Part shown: in pieces, positions 6,674 to 43,144 of the stretch
How the letters are laid out: the number at the start of each line of letters is the position of its first letter
Numbering within the stretch: the first letter of the stretch is position 1
NCBI GenBank assembly: GCA_963755715.1
Contig: CAVWLW010000036.1
Span: 52,117-116,116 of the forward strand
Origin: an uncultured delta proteobacterium
GTDB taxonomy: Bacteria > Desulfobacterota > Binatia > UBA9968
Length of the DNA: 64,000 nucleotides
Direction: 5' to 3'
Notes under the pieces: generated by a model
Seen by the model: the letters and a program-made list of their open reading frames with translations, nothing else
Told to the model about the DNA's origin: nothing
The model's database searches: none
Position numbers and translations under genes: made by a program

Positions 6674-6835
6674 TCAACGCGCCCTGCGATTGGTCGAGCT
6701 GTTGATTAAGTCCGAGAGAATATAAGCAACCAGCTCGTAACTCATTTTGTCATCGTGCACCTGCCGCTCCGCGGCGTCGGTTAAAGCCACGATAAAATCG
6801 CCCAAAGTTGTTTCAAGTTTACCGGTGAGCGCCAT
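6674..6835 (-). CDS. Small hypothetical protein (53 aa)
   Basis: RBS GGAGGT just before ATG; MALTGKLETTLGDFIVALTDAAERQVHDDKMSYELVAYILSDLINSSTNRRAR with amphipathic helical pattern. Confidence 0.6.
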   Translation of the reverse strand: MALTGKLETTLGDFIVALTDAAERQVHDDKMSYELVAYILSDLINSSTNRRAR

Positions 6836-7383
6836 GTCCACCTCCGCGAAATTACCTACCGCAAACCGCGGCGTTTAAAAACGTCGATATAAAAATGCAT
6901 CAAACCATTCCCTCCACCCTGATTAGGTGGAGGTTCAGTCCATGTCCCGTTCAGATCTCGATGATATTTCCAAGAAACAGGAGACGCGCACTGCCGCGCT
7001 ATCAAGAGCGAGTGTCCGCAAGGGCTATACCAGCGCCTCACTCAAACCGTAAAGGCGCCAAAAATAAAAATATTTAGCAACTAGAAGACAGCGCGCATTT
7101 TTAGGTTTGTATGGGAATACCTTCGTAGTGTACTAAGAACAGTACGTTTCTCGATAGTAAAAGACTTCCTGTCAACCTTTGGTGACAGTTTTAAGTTTTT
7201 CGTCGTCCTGGCTAAATAAACAATTGTAAATATAGTCGCGCGCTGTGTCGAAATGCGTTTTAATAAATAATTTTTTTGCTCCAGGCCAAGCCAACCGCCG
7301 TGAAAATAATTTTGCCCACGGCAGTCCTTCGACCTTGCTCCCCTGGAGGAAAATAGGTAATTTACCCACGAACCGGAGCTTTC

Positions 7384-24014: not shown

Positions 24015-25112
24015 TCACGCCGCCTTGAACGTCGACGTCACTTCCTGATGCCCGCCGTTCTCTTTGAGTTCTTCTTCGTAATAGAGCCCGAGTGCATTGA
24101 GCACCGGCAAATCCTGAATCGAGAACAACACGGCATCCGCGCTCGCCGATAGATTCGCGTGCTCATGCAAAGCCCAGGGCGGCAGCGCGAAGATATCGCC
24201 TTTGCTCCAATTGAAACGTTGTCCGTCGATGATCGTGAAGCCGGCGCCGTTCACGACGTGGTAAACCGCGCTGCCGGTGTGGCGATGCGCTTTGGTGTGT
24301 TCACCCGGCCGCAGCAGCTGCACCATGCAAGCCATCGTCGGCAGCACCGGCCCGCCGGTTTGCGGATGACGATACTCGAGCAAAACGCCATCGTGCGCGC
24401 TGCCCTCGTGATCGCGGAGCGAATTTAGCGCTTGCCAGGCTTGCTCCCAGGAATAAAGCAGGAGCGGCGAAGATGGCGCTTTCTCTTTCACCCAGGTTGG
24501 CGTGATATGAGCGTGACCATACAGTTGTCTGGAAGCGTTTGGCGGACGCGACACCGGCACTTGCGGGGCAGAATAGAACTGGAAAAACATCGCTTCTAGT
24601 GACGCGATCAGTGGAATATCAAGCCCGTCCATCCAAACGACGCGATCCTTCGTTTCGTTGCCGTGATCGTGCCAAGCCCAACTCGGGGTCAAGATCAGAT
24701 CACCGGGCGCCATGTAGACGCGTTCGCCGTCGACCGCCGTATAGGCGCCGCTACCTTCTATAATAAATCGAATCGCCGTCGGCGTGTGGCGATGCGCGCG
24801 CGCGACTTCGCCCGGCAGGAGGATTTGCACCGCGGCGATCAGATTATTCGTCGTCGCCCAACGGCCGCCGAGTCCGGGATTGAATAGCTGCAATGCCCGC
24901 CGTTCGTCGCCAACGGGAACTGCACGAGCGGACTCTTCGATGATCGATTGCGTCGTCGACCACGGCCACATATGCGGAATCATCTTGGGCTGAGGTTGCG
25001 GCGTCATCTGACTCGCCAGCTCCCATAATCCGTACATGTTGTTAGCGTGCATGCGCTCGTGGAATGCCGCGCGAAAGGCGTCCGCTTCCGATCTGATTTC
25101 CGGTTTAGCCAT
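24015..25112 (-). CDS. Gentisate 1,2-dioxygenase-like bicupin
   Basis: ERRALQLFNPG, QILLPGEVARAHRHTPTAIRF, TPSWAWHDH, WMDGLDIPL, AHRHTGSAVY. Confidence 0.88.
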   Translation of the reverse strand: MAKPEIRSEADAFRAAFHERMHANNMYGLWELASQMTPQPQPKMIPHMWPWSTTQSIIEESARAVPVGDERRALQLFNPGLGGRWATTNNLIAAVQILLPGEVARAHRHTPTAIRFIIEGSGAYTAVDGERVYMAPGDLILTPSWAWHDHGNETKDRVVWMDGLDIPLIASLEAMFFQFYSAPQVPVSRPPNASRQLYGHAHITPTWVKEKAPSSPLLLYSWEQAWQALNSLRDHEGSAHDGVLLEYRHPQTGGPVLPTMACMVQLLRPGEHTKAHRHTGSAVYHVVNGAGFTIIDGQRFNWSKGDIFALPPWALHEHANLSASADAVLFSIQDLPVLNALGLYYEEELKENGGHQEVTSTFKAA

Positions 25113-39685: not shown

Positions 39686-40705
39686 CTAATTTCTTTTCAT
39701 AGCTTCTTGGACGTAACCTGACTTTTCCAGCCGATCGATAAACGAACTGTCGACTAGCTCTGCGGCCTTGAGCTTGGCCATGCGCGGATTCATGCGGAGT
39801 AGAGCGTCGATCATATTTTGAACGCCCGCCAGAGGGACGTTCGGCACCTTGGTTTTAGCGTGTATTTCCAACGTCGCGTCGTACATGATCTGAACGCTCT
39901 GCGGCGTGCTGAGCTTTAAGCGTCGAGCGAGCACGCTCTTGACTGCTTTCTCGTTGGCTGGATTCGGCAGGAATGCAAACCCGTCGATGGTGCCCTTGAG
40001 AAAAGCTTCGACTTGCTGGGGACTCTCTTTGATGAAACGCCTTGTAGCAACGAGCACTGTGTTTAGATAGGGAACATCGGCTTTGGTCATATCGAGCATT
40101 ACGGTAAGTCCTTTATCTTTTGCCGCCTGCCCAAAGCCCGGCTCCAAAGGCGTCGCATCGATCCTGCCGCTCGCCAACGCGGCCACGCGATCCGGCTGGG
40201 TTCCGACTTGCATGATGGCGATCTTGTCTCGGTTAGGATCTAGACCGAGAGAGTGCAGCGCGACTTCAGCAGCCAGGTGGCTGCCGGAGCCAAAAGTGCT
40301 GACCGCGACGCGCTTGCCTTTCAGATCGGCGGGCTGGCGCACCTGAGGTAAGACCCAAAACTGATAAGGAAGAATATGGATCGTTCCGGCCAGGATGGCG
40401 AGATCGGCTCCGGCGGCGACGGCGCCCGCTGTGGGACCTACGCTGGTGGAAGCCAGCTTAGCCTCGCCGGCGATCAATGCCTGCGACGTCACCGACCCGC
40501 TGCCGGTAAAAACCGAGGTGACATCGAGCCCGTGTTTTTTATAAAAACCTTGGTCTTCGCCGAGCCAAACGCTCGTGTGTGTGGAGATCAATCCAGCGTA
40601 GGCGACTAAAACCTTCCTCGAGGCATCCTGTGCCAAGGCACCACGACCGGCGATGCCGATGAATGAGACCGCCAACAAGATCCCGACTATTTTCTCTTGC
40701 CGCAT
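39686..40705 (-). CDS. ABC SBP, NMT1/THI5/SsuA-like
   Basis: GFYKKHGLDV, DLKGKRVAVSTFGSGS. Confidence 0.88.
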   Translation of the reverse strand: MRQEKIVGILLAVSFIGIAGRGALAQDASRKVLVAYAGLISTHTSVWLGEDQGFYKKHGLDVTSVFTGSGSVTSQALIAGEAKLASTSVGPTAGAVAAGADLAILAGTIHILPYQFWVLPQVRQPADLKGKRVAVSTFGSGSHLAAEVALHSLGLDPNRDKIAIMQVGTQPDRVAALASGRIDATPLEPGFGQAAKDKGLTVMLDMTKADVPYLNTVLVATRRFIKESPQQVEAFLKGTIDGFAFLPNPANEKAVKSVLARRLKLSTPQSVQIMYDATLEIHAKTKVPNVPLAGVQNMIDALLRMNPRMAKLKAAELVDSSFIDRLEKSGYVQEAMKRN

Positions 40706-40915
40706 CTGACCTTCCTCCCTTCTGACGATGGGGGTATTCGGTTTCGATACGTTTAAAGAAATTCTCGTGTTTCTCTATGCTGCCGACATTTTTAAGTAGA
40801 ACGGTAGGGGTTGGCTCTGCAAACGCAAAATGTCAGACTCAGAGTCCGGCCTGAGCCACGCGAATGTGAGAAGTTAAACGAGCTCGGTCGCGCTGCGCGC
40901 GCTCAGCTTTCTGCT

Positions 40916-41689
40916 CTACTCCCAAATTCCTTCGGGCAGAGGTAGCCCCGCTAGAACGTCAGCGGTCAACCTGGCGTCCGGTTCAATGCCGAAGCGCTCG
41001 AGCACGGCGATGATTTGCCGCGCATGCTGCGCCGAATGCCACGTGGAGCGCTCGAACAATTGGTGCATCGGCGGCGTGCCGTAGAATGTCTTGACCTTTT
41101 GACGGCAGGATTTGTCGTCGAGCTGTGCCCACCAGTTCTCGATGCGCTCGATAATACCATCGCCGTAAGCCGCGATTTCCATGCTGGTCATGCAGCTTCC
41201 TTCCGCCGGCGGCACGTTGGCATTGTTCGTCCAGTATTCCACGTCATCCAACGCGGTCTCGAGGAAAGCCTCTCCGATACGAAAGATGTGATGGCTGAGA
41301 AGCCGGATCGAGCGGTCGCGATTGTCGATCGCGCGCTCCGTGAGTCGTGGGTCAGGAATTTGCCGGACGTAGCGTTGCGAAGCGCACAGCACGGTGATCC
41401 ACTTCTCGAACAACACTTCGGGAGGCAAAGGGCTATGCCCGCTGCCTTGCAGGCCGACAAATTCGGCAACGTCTTCCATGTTCTGGCAAAAGATGAACTG
41501 GCCGCCTTTTGCCAGCACCGGCACGCTCTGCGCGCCGAGACTGAGCAACTGCTCTCGACCCGTGGGATCGTTCAAAACATCGAGGGTGGTAAAGTCAATG
41601 CCTTTTTTCGAAAGAAACTCTTTCGTTCTAAGACAACTGCTTCAACCGGGCTGGGTGAACAAGACGAATTTGTCGTTTGTGATTTCCAT
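40916..41689 (-). CDS. Glutaredoxin-DinB-like fusion, probable selenoprotein (in-frame TGA at codon 16, U-S-S-C)
   Basis: ATG 41689 after AGGA: MEITNDKFVLFTQPG-TGA-SSCLRTKEFLSKKGIDF...QSVPVL (Grx cis-Pro), in frame with ORF 41575-40916; C-terminal SHH...WHSAQH; hairpin 16 nt after the TGA. Confidence 0.8.
41609..41625 (-). promoter_or_regulatory. Candidate bacterial SECIS hairpin
   Basis: mRNA CGAAAGA-GUU-UCUUUCG: 7-bp stem with G first in the apical loop, loop 23 nt downstream of the UGA. Confidence 0.55.
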
Positions 41690-41725
41690 CGTTACGTCCT
41701 CGCTATGACCGGCTAAACTGCGCGG

Positions 41726-41754
41726 AACCTATCAACCGTAACCGAACGTGTCAA
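41726..41754 (-). promoter_or_regulatory. Putative sigma70 promoter of the Grx-DinB gene
   Basis: TTGACA-N17-TAGGTT with extended -10 TG. Confidence 0.5.
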
Positions 41755-41955
41755 CTCGGAATCCGTGTTTCGTGCTCGTGGGCGTGGCTCGTGCGAGCGG
41801 TTGGCTCAGATACTCCGCGGTTCGTGATAAGCAAATTACCGATTCAACCATGAAGCACTCGAGGGTCAGTACAGTCATTTTCCAAAGTTCGTGCTCTTCG
41901 CATTACTACGCCTGAAAGTTTTCGCGGCTTGCGCAAATTTCTCCTAACAAAAGGA

Positions 41956-42016
41956 CCCGGATTTTGCTGCGCTCCATCCGGGCTACGAATTGAGCGGTGC
42001 GCGTAGCGCACCCTAC
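41956..42016 (-). repeat. Two tandem GTAG REPs; the second matches the RAYT-flanking class
   Basis: Reverse strand GTAGCCCGGATGGAGCGCAGCAAAATCCGGG and GTAGGGTGCGCTACGCGCACC. Confidence 0.75.
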
Positions 42017-42117
42017 CAAAACCTTCGTGCTCTTCGTGACCTCTGTAGTAAACTCCGCTTTCCTACCTTGGTTGCGGCTCTGCCGCGCTAGGACCTCGTG
42101 GTGAGTCCCACTTGTTT

Positions 42118-43144
42118 TCAGCTCACCGAGATTTTCAGCAGCTTCCTGGCGTTGCCTTCGAGTATCGCCTGCTTTTCTATTTCCGAACAACGCAAGCGCC
42201 TCAACTTTGTCGACGCACTGCCAGTCGCCGAGGATGTACGGAAAGTCCGTGCCAAGCATTAAATGCTCCGCGCCGACTTTGCGGCGGAGAAAATCAAGAG
42301 TTTCCACGTCGTAAACCAGTGTATCGAAGTACAGGTTCTTGAGGTAAGCACTCGGCTCGGATGTGCAACGTGGCGAGTTGGGACGGTCTGCGCGCCGGGT
42401 CGCTTGCTTTCCCGTGAGATATTCTCGATCGAAGCGGCCCACGTGATAAGGGAAAAATCCACCACCATGGCATGTGCAAACTTTTAAATTGGGAAACCGA
42501 TCGAACACGCCGCTGTAAATTAGTAGGCCGAGTGATAGCGTGGTGTCGGCCGGATTGCCGCAGACCAAGCGCAGGCCGAATGAGCCCATCAGCTCGGTTC
42601 CTGCTGGATTGTCCGGGTGCATGAAGACGAGCACGTCCAACTCCTCAGCCTTAGCCCAGAACGGATCGAAATCTTCACTGTCATAGTACTTATGATTCAC
42701 ATTGGTCGCGATGTAAGCGCCGCGGAACCCCAGCTGTATGACCGCGTGTTCCAGAACCTTCGCTGCGCGCGCCGGCTCCTGTATTGGTACAGCGGCCATC
42801 GCAGTAAACCGCTCCGGATATTTTTTCAGAAATTCTTTAACGCACTCGTTGTAGATACGGCACCAACTCTCAGCTTGTTCGCCTTGGAGATCGTAGCCGA
42901 GCAGTTGCGTGCTCGGATCAAGCGCCGCCAGCGCGATTTTGCCTTTCGTCATCATCTCTAGCCGGGGCGCCACATCCGTCAAACCTTGCAGCAACGGATA
43001 TTTTGGACCGCCGTTGAACGAAAACCGGATCGTTCCGTCTTTGTCTTCGGAGACCTCGATGCCCAGGGCTTTGCCGCTCCGCTTCGCCTCCCCGATCACC
43101 TCCTCGGGAACGTAGTGATGATGAATATCGATCGCACCCTGCAT
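42118..43144 (-). CDS. ACMSD-like amidohydrolase_2 (frameshift near 42190; true C-terminus ...ILEGNARKLLKISVS)
   Basis: IDIHHH, VFMHP, HGGGFFPY, LYFDTLVY, LGTDFPY. Confidence 0.88.

Follow-up and report, generated by a model that had tools for sequence, protein, structure and literature searches.

Gene layout and reading frame

The window analysed here, a stretch of 64,000 nt from an uncultured delta proteobacterium of the Binatia (assembly GCA_963755715.1, contig CAVWLW010000036.1, positions 52,117 to 116,116), carries on its minus strand a gene of 257 codons with an in-frame TGA at codon 16. As judged from the sequence, this gene is predicted to encode a selenoprotein of 257 residues, in which UGA16 specifies selenocysteine (Sec, U) within an N-terminal glutaredoxin (Grx) domain fused to a DinB-like domain, and which is truncated by annotation pipelines (Table 1). 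A probability of about 0.85 is assigned to this interpretation; the value covers its core, i.e., the recoding signature, the domain architecture and the family-wide alternation of Sec and Cys.

The frame starts with ATG at 41689-41687, meets the TGA (41644-41642) in the context FTQPG-TGA-SSC and then stays open for 241 further codons up to the TAG stop at 40918-40916. A preceding sequence-only reading of the window had claimed a promoter, a ribosome binding site and an ATG, with the TGA falling on the first Cys of the Grx CxxC motif and the frame remaining open behind it. All of this can be read directly from the DNA, including a GAGGA at a 7-nt distance from the ATG, except for the promoter: a sigma-70 promoter scan of 40700-42000 yielded 0 sites. 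By eye, a perfect TTGACA is found at 41754-41749, and the hexamer 17 nt downstream of it (TAGGTT) matches the -10 consensus in 3/6 positions. Three terminator-like sites reported by the scan are within chance expectation. The motifs TKEFL, SVPV and H...HxxxH named by the same reading are all located in the 257-residue product (T22-K-E-F-L26, S55-V-P-V58, H133/H134 and H218-x-x-x-H222).

Standard ORF listing yields solely a product of 219 aa from an internal TTG start. Public gene calls are of the same kind, as the sequence-only reading had anticipated, since 118 of the 120 best database matches have lengths of only 187-227 aa (truncated gene calls) and the Atlas holds the 219-aa form, identical letter for letter. 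Records of truncated forms are named "hypothetical protein", those of Cys forms "glutaredoxin" or not at all.

Table 1 Features of the predicted selenoprotein gene (coordinates refer to the window) and of the gene island containing its Betaproteobacterial homologs
Feature	Position	Strand	Basis
Predicted selenoprotein gene, complete: 257 codons + TAG stop, in-frame TGA read as Sec	40916..41689	-	Read directly; orthologs of same layout
Shine-Dalgarno-like GAGGA, 7-nt spacer to ATG	41697..41701	-	Read directly
Predicted Sec codon UGA (U16), first residue of U-S-S-C	41642..41644	-	Column conservation, Cys counterparts
Resolving Cys C19 of U-x-x-C	41633..41635	-	Invariant in alignment A1 (20 fusion proteins) and in 51/51 Sec forms
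219-aa ORF from internal TTG (41575), called instead of the real gene	40916..41575	-	ORF listing
Grx/NrdH-like redoxin domain, residues 8-77	41459..41668	-	Pfam PF00462, AF2 fold, PDB matches
DinB/YfiT-like four-helix bundle, residues 90-257	40919..41422	-	Foldseek, His triad
H134, first His of putative metal triad, bundle helix 2	41288..41290	-	Invariant in A1
H218-x-x-x-H222, second and third His of putative triad, helix 4	41024..41038	-	Invariant in A1
Predicted bacterial Sec insertion sequence (bSECIS), apical hairpin: 7-bp stem and GUU loop over codons 22-27 (T-K-E-F-L-S)	41609..41625	-	Conservation, pairing
Possible lower SECIS helix enclosing UGA, weakly supported	41588..41647	-	Minimum free energy (MFE) fold
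Compact Sec island: mnmA, Grx(U)-DinB, selA, selB, divergent low-Mr thioredoxin reductase (TrxR)-like gene (CxxC), tRNA-SeC	L086, L087, L088, L091, L092, L093, L095		

Conservation of the TGA codon and alternation with Cys

Searching 61 related genomes (this one included) with stops read through revealed 19 other full-length orthologs (71-82 % identity), each with an in-frame TGA, and five distant fusion homologs (28-31 % identity), each with one TGA. The codon aligned to codon 16 is TGA in all 26 fusion-type sequences covering this column (3 of the 30 loci examined in the related genomes do not cover it). A scan of one genome per species provided 62 loci, with TGA in the column in 43 of them, i.e., in 43 of the 46 fusion loci covering it. 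The other three full-length fusions (L097, L098 and L100; 46-51 % identity) carry TGC. A Cys codon (TGC or TGT) is also present in nine matches restricted to the Grx domain, and the remaining seven loci do not reach the column. De-duplication across both searches leaves 54 unique fusion sequences, comprising 51 with TGA (Sec forms), all from independent assemblies, and three with TGC (Cys forms). One sequence each of two unpublished genomes (G005, G035) was left out of the alignments and the tree, and neither bears on any conclusion drawn here. C19 is retained in all 51 Sec forms. Cys is the standard counterpart of Sec in homologous proteins, and the alternation of both at codon 16, which the sequence-only reading had made a touchstone of its proposal, is thus apparent from the nucleotide sequences (TGA in 51/54, TGC in 3/54) as well as from 63 of the 150 best-matching database representatives, which have CxxC at this place; a TGA unique to this genome, named there as grounds for rejection, is not what was found.

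Upstream of the TGA, codons 8-15 keep the peptide F/L-V-L-F-T-Q-P-G, yet vary synonymously, with five codons being used for L10, four for G15, three for P14 and two for Q13. Across the 51 unique sequences, codons 1-38 as a whole are conserved as protein with synonymous drift. Furthermore, an independent soil DNA run contains a 1507-nt contig that extends across the whole gene with the TGA unchanged, which speaks against the sequencing error that the sequence-only reading had allowed for. Since the TGA occupies the same column in 51 independent sequences, is replaced by Cys in homologs and is preceded by codons evolving in a coding manner, it is neither an error nor a stop.

One ortholog (L043 / L085; G018:C35:13429-14199) has an extra A in the A-run following the hairpin described below, which shifts the frame and creates a second in-frame TGA. 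A homopolymer error of the assembly is again the probable cause.

A nucleotide-invariant hairpin downstream of the UGA

A hairpin formed by CGAAAGA (41625-41619), the loop GUU (41618-41616) and UCUUUCG (41615-41609) begins 16 nt past the UGA, with its loop beginning 23 nt past it. The bSECIS model (PMC13188914, Fig. 2 legend) comprises a loop of 3-9 nt with a G within the first two positions, an upper stem of 4-16 bp, a distance of 16-37 nt between UGA and loop, and an MFE of at most -7.5 kcal/mol. The geometry of the hairpin, pointed out already by the sequence-only reading, agrees with this model, i.e., a 3-nt loop with G in first position, a 7-bp stem and a spacing of 23 nt. For the 66-nt stretch, the predicted folding energy is -19.7 kcal/mol (z = -3.4), a value matched by 1 of 200 shuffled sequences.

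Of the 51 Sec forms, 50 share the identical 17-mer, the exception (L079) turning an A-U into a G-U pair. Codons 22-27 (ACG AAA GAG TTT CTT TCG) correspondingly show a synonymous entropy of about 0 among the Sec forms, as compared to 0.35-2.05 in the flanks; for example, K23 is encoded by AAA in 50 and by AAG in one of them. In the Cys forms, by contrast, two to three codons each are used for E24, F25 and L26, and the hairpin is absent from all three. Thus, nucleotide invariance is confined to the TGA forms. The family thereby constitutes a natural experiment of rare clarity on the constraint acting on bacterial SECIS elements, six codons being frozen at the nucleotide level in Sec forms, down to about 30 % protein identity and across phyla, and drifting freely in Cys forms.

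Among 47 distinct sequences, pairing of the apical helix is complete (100 % of cells). Seven pairs of the possible lower helix change on both sides; covariation is not claimed for it, since the signal is modest and biased by the structure having been derived from this very sequence. Within the 7.4-Mb genome, the 17-mer occurs only twice, namely in this gene and in its decayed copy on contig C1, and its presence is therefore beyond chance.

Sec machinery of the host genome

The genome encodes SelA (617 bits), SelB (416 bits) and SelD together on contig C3, and tRNA-Sec on contig C69 (76.7 bits; ARAGORN agrees). The window itself contains no sel gene over family cut-off. Both results agree with the sequence-only reading, which had noted the lack of sel genes in the window and named the genome as the place to look for them. 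The selD gene (G000:C3:71086-72013 (-), corresponding to L116 8985-10045) has a TGA at the active-site position, and its frame is split by a single inserted base. This insertion is probably an assembly indel, since the same assembly likewise splits the adjacent malQ into two ORFs. These loci outside the window fit the remark of the sequence-only reading that probable errors in the window are indels. A further candidate Sec codon is present in an fdhA gene of the Sec-type (one TGA, codon 180; G000:C1:10092-13070 (+)). Loops starting with G-U are likewise found in the hairpins behind the UGA of selD (GUC) and fdhA (GGUCU).

The selA gene was found in both Sec-form hosts analyzed, but over cut-off in none of three Cys-form hosts, which is consistent with absence of selA from the latter rather than proof of it, as these are metagenome-assembled genomes (MAGs) and may be incomplete.

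Three further loci of the host genome contain in-frame TGAs. A second FdhA-like gene is present in several pieces (G000:C73:94983-98218 (-)). A stand-alone Sec-glutaredoxin of 76 aa (YTQPG-U-GPC) is encoded at G000:C17:56969-57193 (-); its hairpin differs in the stem (8 bp), but agrees with that of the fusion gene in the GUU loop, the closing A-U pair and the spacing of 23 nt. The decayed second copy of the fusion gene (G000:C1:64808-65069 (-), corresponding to L117 about 6700-7070) shares start, TGA and hairpin, but is frameshifted by an additional base behind the hairpin and contains only a truncated DinB part.

Domain architecture

The N-terminal domain matches Pfam PF00462 (Glutaredoxin) at residues 9-66 with 51.1 bits (E 1.6e-13; cut-off 22.9). 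In the PDB, the sequence-profile search retrieved Grx 7c10 (E 3e-17) and several NrdH structures (E 1e-8 to 4e-10). For NCBIfam, no family scores over cut-off with either domain, matches to YruB, UXX-star and NrdH being sub-threshold. The AF2 model (pLDDT 88.2, pTM 0.84) predicts a Grx fold at residues 8-77 with the topology beta-alpha-beta-alpha-beta-beta-alpha, in which codons 8-15 supply the first strand of the thioredoxin fold and U16-S-S-C19 precedes helix 17-28. Fold matches of this domain (Foldseek) are glutaredoxin-like proteins and include 3zit and 3ic4.

The C-terminal domain is modelled as a bundle of four helices (residues 90-109, 128-148, 169-189 and 208-232). Foldseek relates it to YfiT (1rxq; E 3.5e-4) and DR0053 (6iz2; TMt 0.84), with a probability of 1.00 for both, in agreement with the DinB-like domain proposed from the sequence alone. 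Enzymes of the DinB/S-transferase-like (STL) group such as the bacillithiol S-transferase BstA/YfiT and the mycothiol S-transferase MST are described as four-helix bundles with a metal on conserved His, which move a low-molecular-weight thiol onto electrophiles (PMC10950700). This metal-His pattern is matched by H134 (helix 2) together with H218 and H222 (helix 4), suggesting by analogy a putative metal site.

Alignment A1, from which two unpublished sequences, one near-duplicate, one frameshifted and one partial sequence were left out, shows U16, C19, K23-S27, R124, R126, H134, D148, H218, H222, R224 and Q225 to be invariant.

Family size and phylogeny

A profile search of 1.84 billion cluster representatives resulted in 4882 matches at E<=1e-3, 787 at 1e-10 and 190 at 1e-30. 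Apart from the 63 CxxC sequences mentioned above, the best 150 representatives comprise one with SxxS at column 16, 71 that begin just downstream of it, and 15 fragments. The starts of the truncated calls scatter over residues 20-72, and the 71 downstream-starting sequences probably represent truncated calls of Sec forms. The His triad is HHH in 122 of the 126 representatives of this set covering it. In one family member (P0193; 721 aa), a Grx-DinB module of the Cys form occupies the C-terminal third (residues 470-717).

The nearest relatives belong to Candidatus Binatia or Deltaproteobacteria MAGs, and other Sec forms to Betaproteobacteria/Burkholderiales MAGs (58-67 % identity) and one Acidobacteriota MAG. 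Phylogenetic analysis (FastTree, unrooted) was based on the columns after C19 in 164 rows, after exclusion of duplicates, two short rows and the two from unpublished genomes. Verified Sec forms fall into two clades, one of 42 rows (support 98) and another of five rows, nested among truncated calls in a clade of 23 rows (support 98). Both are separated by Cys forms, and the starred branches force at least five changes between Cys and Sec-like states. Gain and loss of Sec are indistinguishable in this unrooted tree; an ancestral Sec form would be the easier explanation of the identical hairpin in both Sec clades.

Because gene callers take the Sec codon for a stop, thousands of database entries from this family lack their N-terminus and are listed as "hypothetical proteins". 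With their correction, a widespread soil selenoprotein, present in MAGs of Binatia type, Betaproteobacteria and Acidobacteriota, would enter a catalogue from which it is missing.

Genomic context and transcription

Within the window, the gene is surrounded by genes for NMT1-type binding proteins, an amidohydrolase_2, an AMP-binding enzyme and a short-chain dehydrogenase/reductase (SDR). Across 47 loci, neighbours are recurrent in sub-clades only, i.e., NMT1-type proteins in 16, MmgE/PrpD in nine and amidohydrolase_2 in eight loci; a glutathione S-transferase (GST) gene adjoins the fusion gene in ten.

A different organization is found in nine Betaproteobacterial loci with Sec forms (Table 1). 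In each of the eight loci with enough flank, selA lies on the strand of the fusion gene, 0.9-2.9 kb downstream of it, followed by selB and a TrxR-like gene in all seven with flanks reaching that far. Upstream, mnmA is present in eight of the nine, and a canonical GST gene (PRK10357, over cut-off) is divergently oriented in four of the nine. The flavoprotein encoded by the TrxR-like gene aligns end-to-end with TIGR01292 (245.8 bits, below the cut-off of 343) and keeps the CxxC motif. tRNA-SeC follows the flavoprotein gene in three loci; in L091, which also extends past this gene, no tRNA-SeC was found by ARAGORN. The location of a TrxR-like gene between selB and selC is unusual in itself. By contrast, sel genes are absent from the flanks of all 34 other Sec-form loci (Binatia-type, distant-clade and Acidobacteriota) and of all three Cys-form loci. 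Five Betaproteobacterial genomes have a SelD with an in-frame TGA, and a search directed at FdhA, rather than a full selenoproteome scan, detected in them no FdhA over cut-off or with an in-frame stop.

Transcription of the gene is suggested by contigs from RNA-seq libraries of three studies, which overlap parts of it in 17, 12 and 17 of 30 bins. Contig X15 (316 nt) spans 41485-41760, i.e., start, UGA and hairpin, with one mismatch, and contig X17, derived from a relative, has three synonymous differences in codons 19-21 at unchanged UGA and hairpin.

Proposed function

According to the proposed mechanism, SelB and tRNA-Sec would decode UGA16 as Sec, directed by the hairpin within the coding sequence, the loop of which is located 23 nt downstream. 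The active site of the N-terminal redoxin would be U16-x-x-C19, and H134, H218 and H222 would form the His triad of the C-terminal bundle, a type of site that carries a divalent metal in bacillithiol and mycothiol S-transferases.

The subsequent chemistry is proposed by analogy and should be regarded as tentative, its probability being appreciable but well short of even. The DinB metal site may bind the substrate, which the neighbouring selenolate may either attack or reduce, in the latter case with formation of a U16-C19 selenenylsulfide. Re-reduction of the selenenylsulfide could be accomplished by a flavoprotein of the TrxR type, such as the product of the neighbouring gene in Betaproteobacteria, or else by glutathione (GSH), an option that would go along with the canonical GST as recurrent neighbour. 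The protein would then represent a self-contained reductase or thiol-transferase, with an encoded selenol in place of the free low-molecular-weight thiol used by stand-alone DinB enzymes.

At clearly lower confidence, one may speculate that the compact Sec island has the Grx(Sec)-DinB protein as its main client, possibly even as a working part, and that this protein represents a new enzyme class and the reason, instead of formate dehydrogenase, why the Sec trait is kept in some soil Betaproteobacteria. Electrons could in this case be relayed from NADPH via the dedicated flavoprotein and the redoxin selenenylsulfide to the DinB metal site. If the linkage to the sel operon reflects function, the island would provide a testable candidate for a dedicated relay of reductase, selenoredoxin and metal site, and a candidate selective reason for Sec machinery without a Sec-containing formate dehydrogenase.

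Points against and competing interpretations

Several observations weigh against the selenoprotein interpretation or its functional extension. For the 17-mer on its own, the folding energy is only -5.2 kcal/mol, or -6.3 when flanks of 2 nt are included, i.e., above the -7.5 kcal/mol of the bSECIS model, which is passed only on counting the weakly supported lower helix (60-nt fold, -16.5); this helix is paired in 73.8 % of cells among the 47 distinct sequences, many cells being unpaired. A search of Rfam at E up to 10 over 40500-42200 returned no SECIS family, but merely a chance miRNA match. The 1-nt frameshift in selD, if real, would break the Sec pathway. Pfam DinB_2 (PF12867) scores 18.0 bits at residues 106-226 (E 0.004), below the gathering threshold of 24.8, such that the DinB assignment is based on the predicted fold and the His triad; some relatives (e.g., P0097) do carry a precomputed DinB_2, as do 29-46 % of the members of the Atlas clusters. 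With respect to context, no neighbour is common to all 47 loci, and Binatia-type loci have no TrxR-like or sel gene nearby. The RNA-library contigs may contain DNA. Finally, we infer substrate, metal and reductant alike.

Among the alternatives, a role of the protein in selenium metabolism itself fares best, even though it is rather unlikely. In this case, the fusion protein and the TrxR-like flavoprotein encoded next to it would jointly serve SelD by reducing or carrying its selenium, and the location of the fusion gene in the sel operon would be accounted for. The Betaproteobacterial gene order (mnmA, fusion, selA, selB, TrxR-like, tRNA-Sec) and the five such genomes tested, having a Sec-type SelD in the absence of a Sec-type FdhA, are in line with such a role, the more so as the selenium donor system of SelD is not settled, with the GSH and thioredoxin (Trx) systems as candidates (PMC13188914). 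However, the 34 Sec-form loci outside this group are not near sel genes, and linkage of a client gene to sel genes can also arise by mere co-transfer. Moreover, since Cys forms occur in hosts without selA over cut-off, the family apparently works without the Sec trait.

The sequence-only reading had proposed that the protein may act as a maleylpyruvate isomerase downstream of gentisate ring cleavage, its own selenol replacing mycothiol. This function is improbable. The DinB-fold N-domain of the isomerase 2nsf is indeed among the fold matches of the C-domain (TMq 0.44, TMt 0.47), but YfiT and DR0053 match better, and no isomerase family of NCBIfam matches the C-domain at E < 0.1. A gene for a gentisate-1,2-dioxygenase-like cupin is present in the window (24072-25073 (-)), yet it is located about 16 kb away, scores below cut-off (311.9 versus 442.1 bits) and is only 1 of 19 family matches in the genome; neither this dioxygenase nor any other gene is conserved as neighbour across the 47 loci. 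The link to gentisate could thus not be upheld. The 19 family matches suggest a broad capacity for aromatic ring cleavage in this organism.

The remaining alternatives concern the UGA itself. Its recoding other than as Sec, i.e., by read-through or as Trp or Gly in a variant code, is highly improbable, since TGA serves as normal terminator in orthologs of the same gene (e.g., L028, L030 and L031), Cys is found in the homologous column, the hairpin agrees with the bSECIS model, and hosts of Sec forms have tRNA-Sec, SelA and SelB, in contrast to SelA over cut-off in 0/3 Cys-form hosts.

An ordinary stop, with a 219-aa DinB-like protein starting from the TTG at 41575 and the upstream part being leader or non-coding, is how public gene calls and the Atlas read the sequence. 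This view is scarcely tenable considering that codons 1-38 are conserved as protein and supply first strand, active site and first helix of a complete Grx fold, that translation of Cys-form homologs passes the column of codon 16 without interruption, and that the starts of the truncated calls are scattered as would be expected for arbitrary internal starts.

A sequencing or assembly error, or a pseudogene, is suggested by the indels splitting selD and malQ and by the decayed copy on C1, but has a negligible probability in view of the same TGA in 51 unique independent sequences and the soil DNA contig spanning the gene, the otherwise intact frame and the strong purifying selection on the hairpin.

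Comparison with known systems

The selenoprotein predicted here most closely resembles Sec-containing Grx (PF00462 UxxC), an experimentally verified family (PMC13188914, Table 1). Shared properties are an N-domain scoring over threshold, Sec as first residue of U-x-x-C and a SECIS just downstream in the coding sequence. In contrast to this family, the redoxin accounts for only the first ~80 of 257 residues, and a DinB-fold domain is fused to it across the whole family.

With BstA/YfiT and MST of the DinB/YfiT S-transferase-like group, the C-domain shares the four-helix bundle with His on helix 2 and H-x-x-x-H on helix 4. These enzymes are stand-alone homodimers using a free low-molecular-weight thiol (PMC10950700), whereas the present protein would contribute a selenol from its own redoxin domain. 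The sequence likeness is marginal (DinB_2, 18 bits), and a transferase role may be assumed by analogy. The DinB-fold N-domain of maleylpyruvate isomerase (2nsf) is likewise similar, but a weaker match than YfiT or DR0053.

NrdH-redoxin, with TrxR as partner, is a further relative of the N-domain, being among its best PDB matches, and truncated clusters in the Atlas are auto-named 'NrdH-redoxin family protein'. Moreover, a gene for a CxxC flavoprotein of the TrxR family adjoins the fusion gene in Betaproteobacteria, synteny being the indication that TrxR may reduce the protein. Unlike NrdH, the N-domain scores only 36.9 bits with TIGR02194 (cut-off 85.75) and has no ribonucleotide-reductase context.

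Canonical GSTs also combine a thioredoxin-fold N-domain with an all-helical domain, and appear in the list of fold matches; the present protein also gives a faint match to GRXB (E 0.035). However, whole-chain superposition results in an rmsd of 11-16 Å, since GST chains fit the N-domain only; the helical domain is here a DinB bundle with His triad rather than a GST C-domain. The likeness to GSTs is therefore one of analogy, not homology.

A review from 2026 lists 119 prokaryotic selenoprotein families, including "Glutaredoxin (Grx) PF00462 UxxC"; its Table 1 contains no family combining Grx with DinB, and the terms DinB, YfiT, NrdH, PF12867, PF05163 and maleylpyruvate are absent from its main text (PMC13188914). 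The main texts of deep-Sep and BSepDB, whose supplementary lists might carry the protein under "Grx", likewise mention neither DinB nor glutaredoxin. A full-text literature search for selenoprotein and DinB (also with glutaredoxin) retrieved nothing relevant among the papers listed. Thus, the protein is a Sec-glutaredoxin by its N-domain, but the Grx-U/DinB architecture together with its operon context is undescribed in the sources searched.

The UXX-star proteins (NF041212, NF041114, NF041211 and NF047338) are distant Grx-like selenoproteins with weak matches to the N-domain, scoring below the respective cut-offs (38.4/66, 25.3/100, 24.2/97 and 17.3/72 bits). They differ by their size of about 70 aa, the location of Sec near the C-terminus in some families and the lack of a DinB domain. 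Small Grx-like genes with two in-frame TGAs, resembling UXX-star, are present in most of 19 genomes of one genus (G038-G060, order-level relatives); in one of them (L053), the first UGA is followed by a hairpin that differs in its stem sequence.

As a minor observation on the surroundings of the gene, the amidohydrolase_2 ORF upstream of it (41906-43144 (-)) encodes 412 aa, with the Pfam match ending at residue 309 and a long low-complexity tail behind it, which may be due to a frameshift or a misplaced stop.

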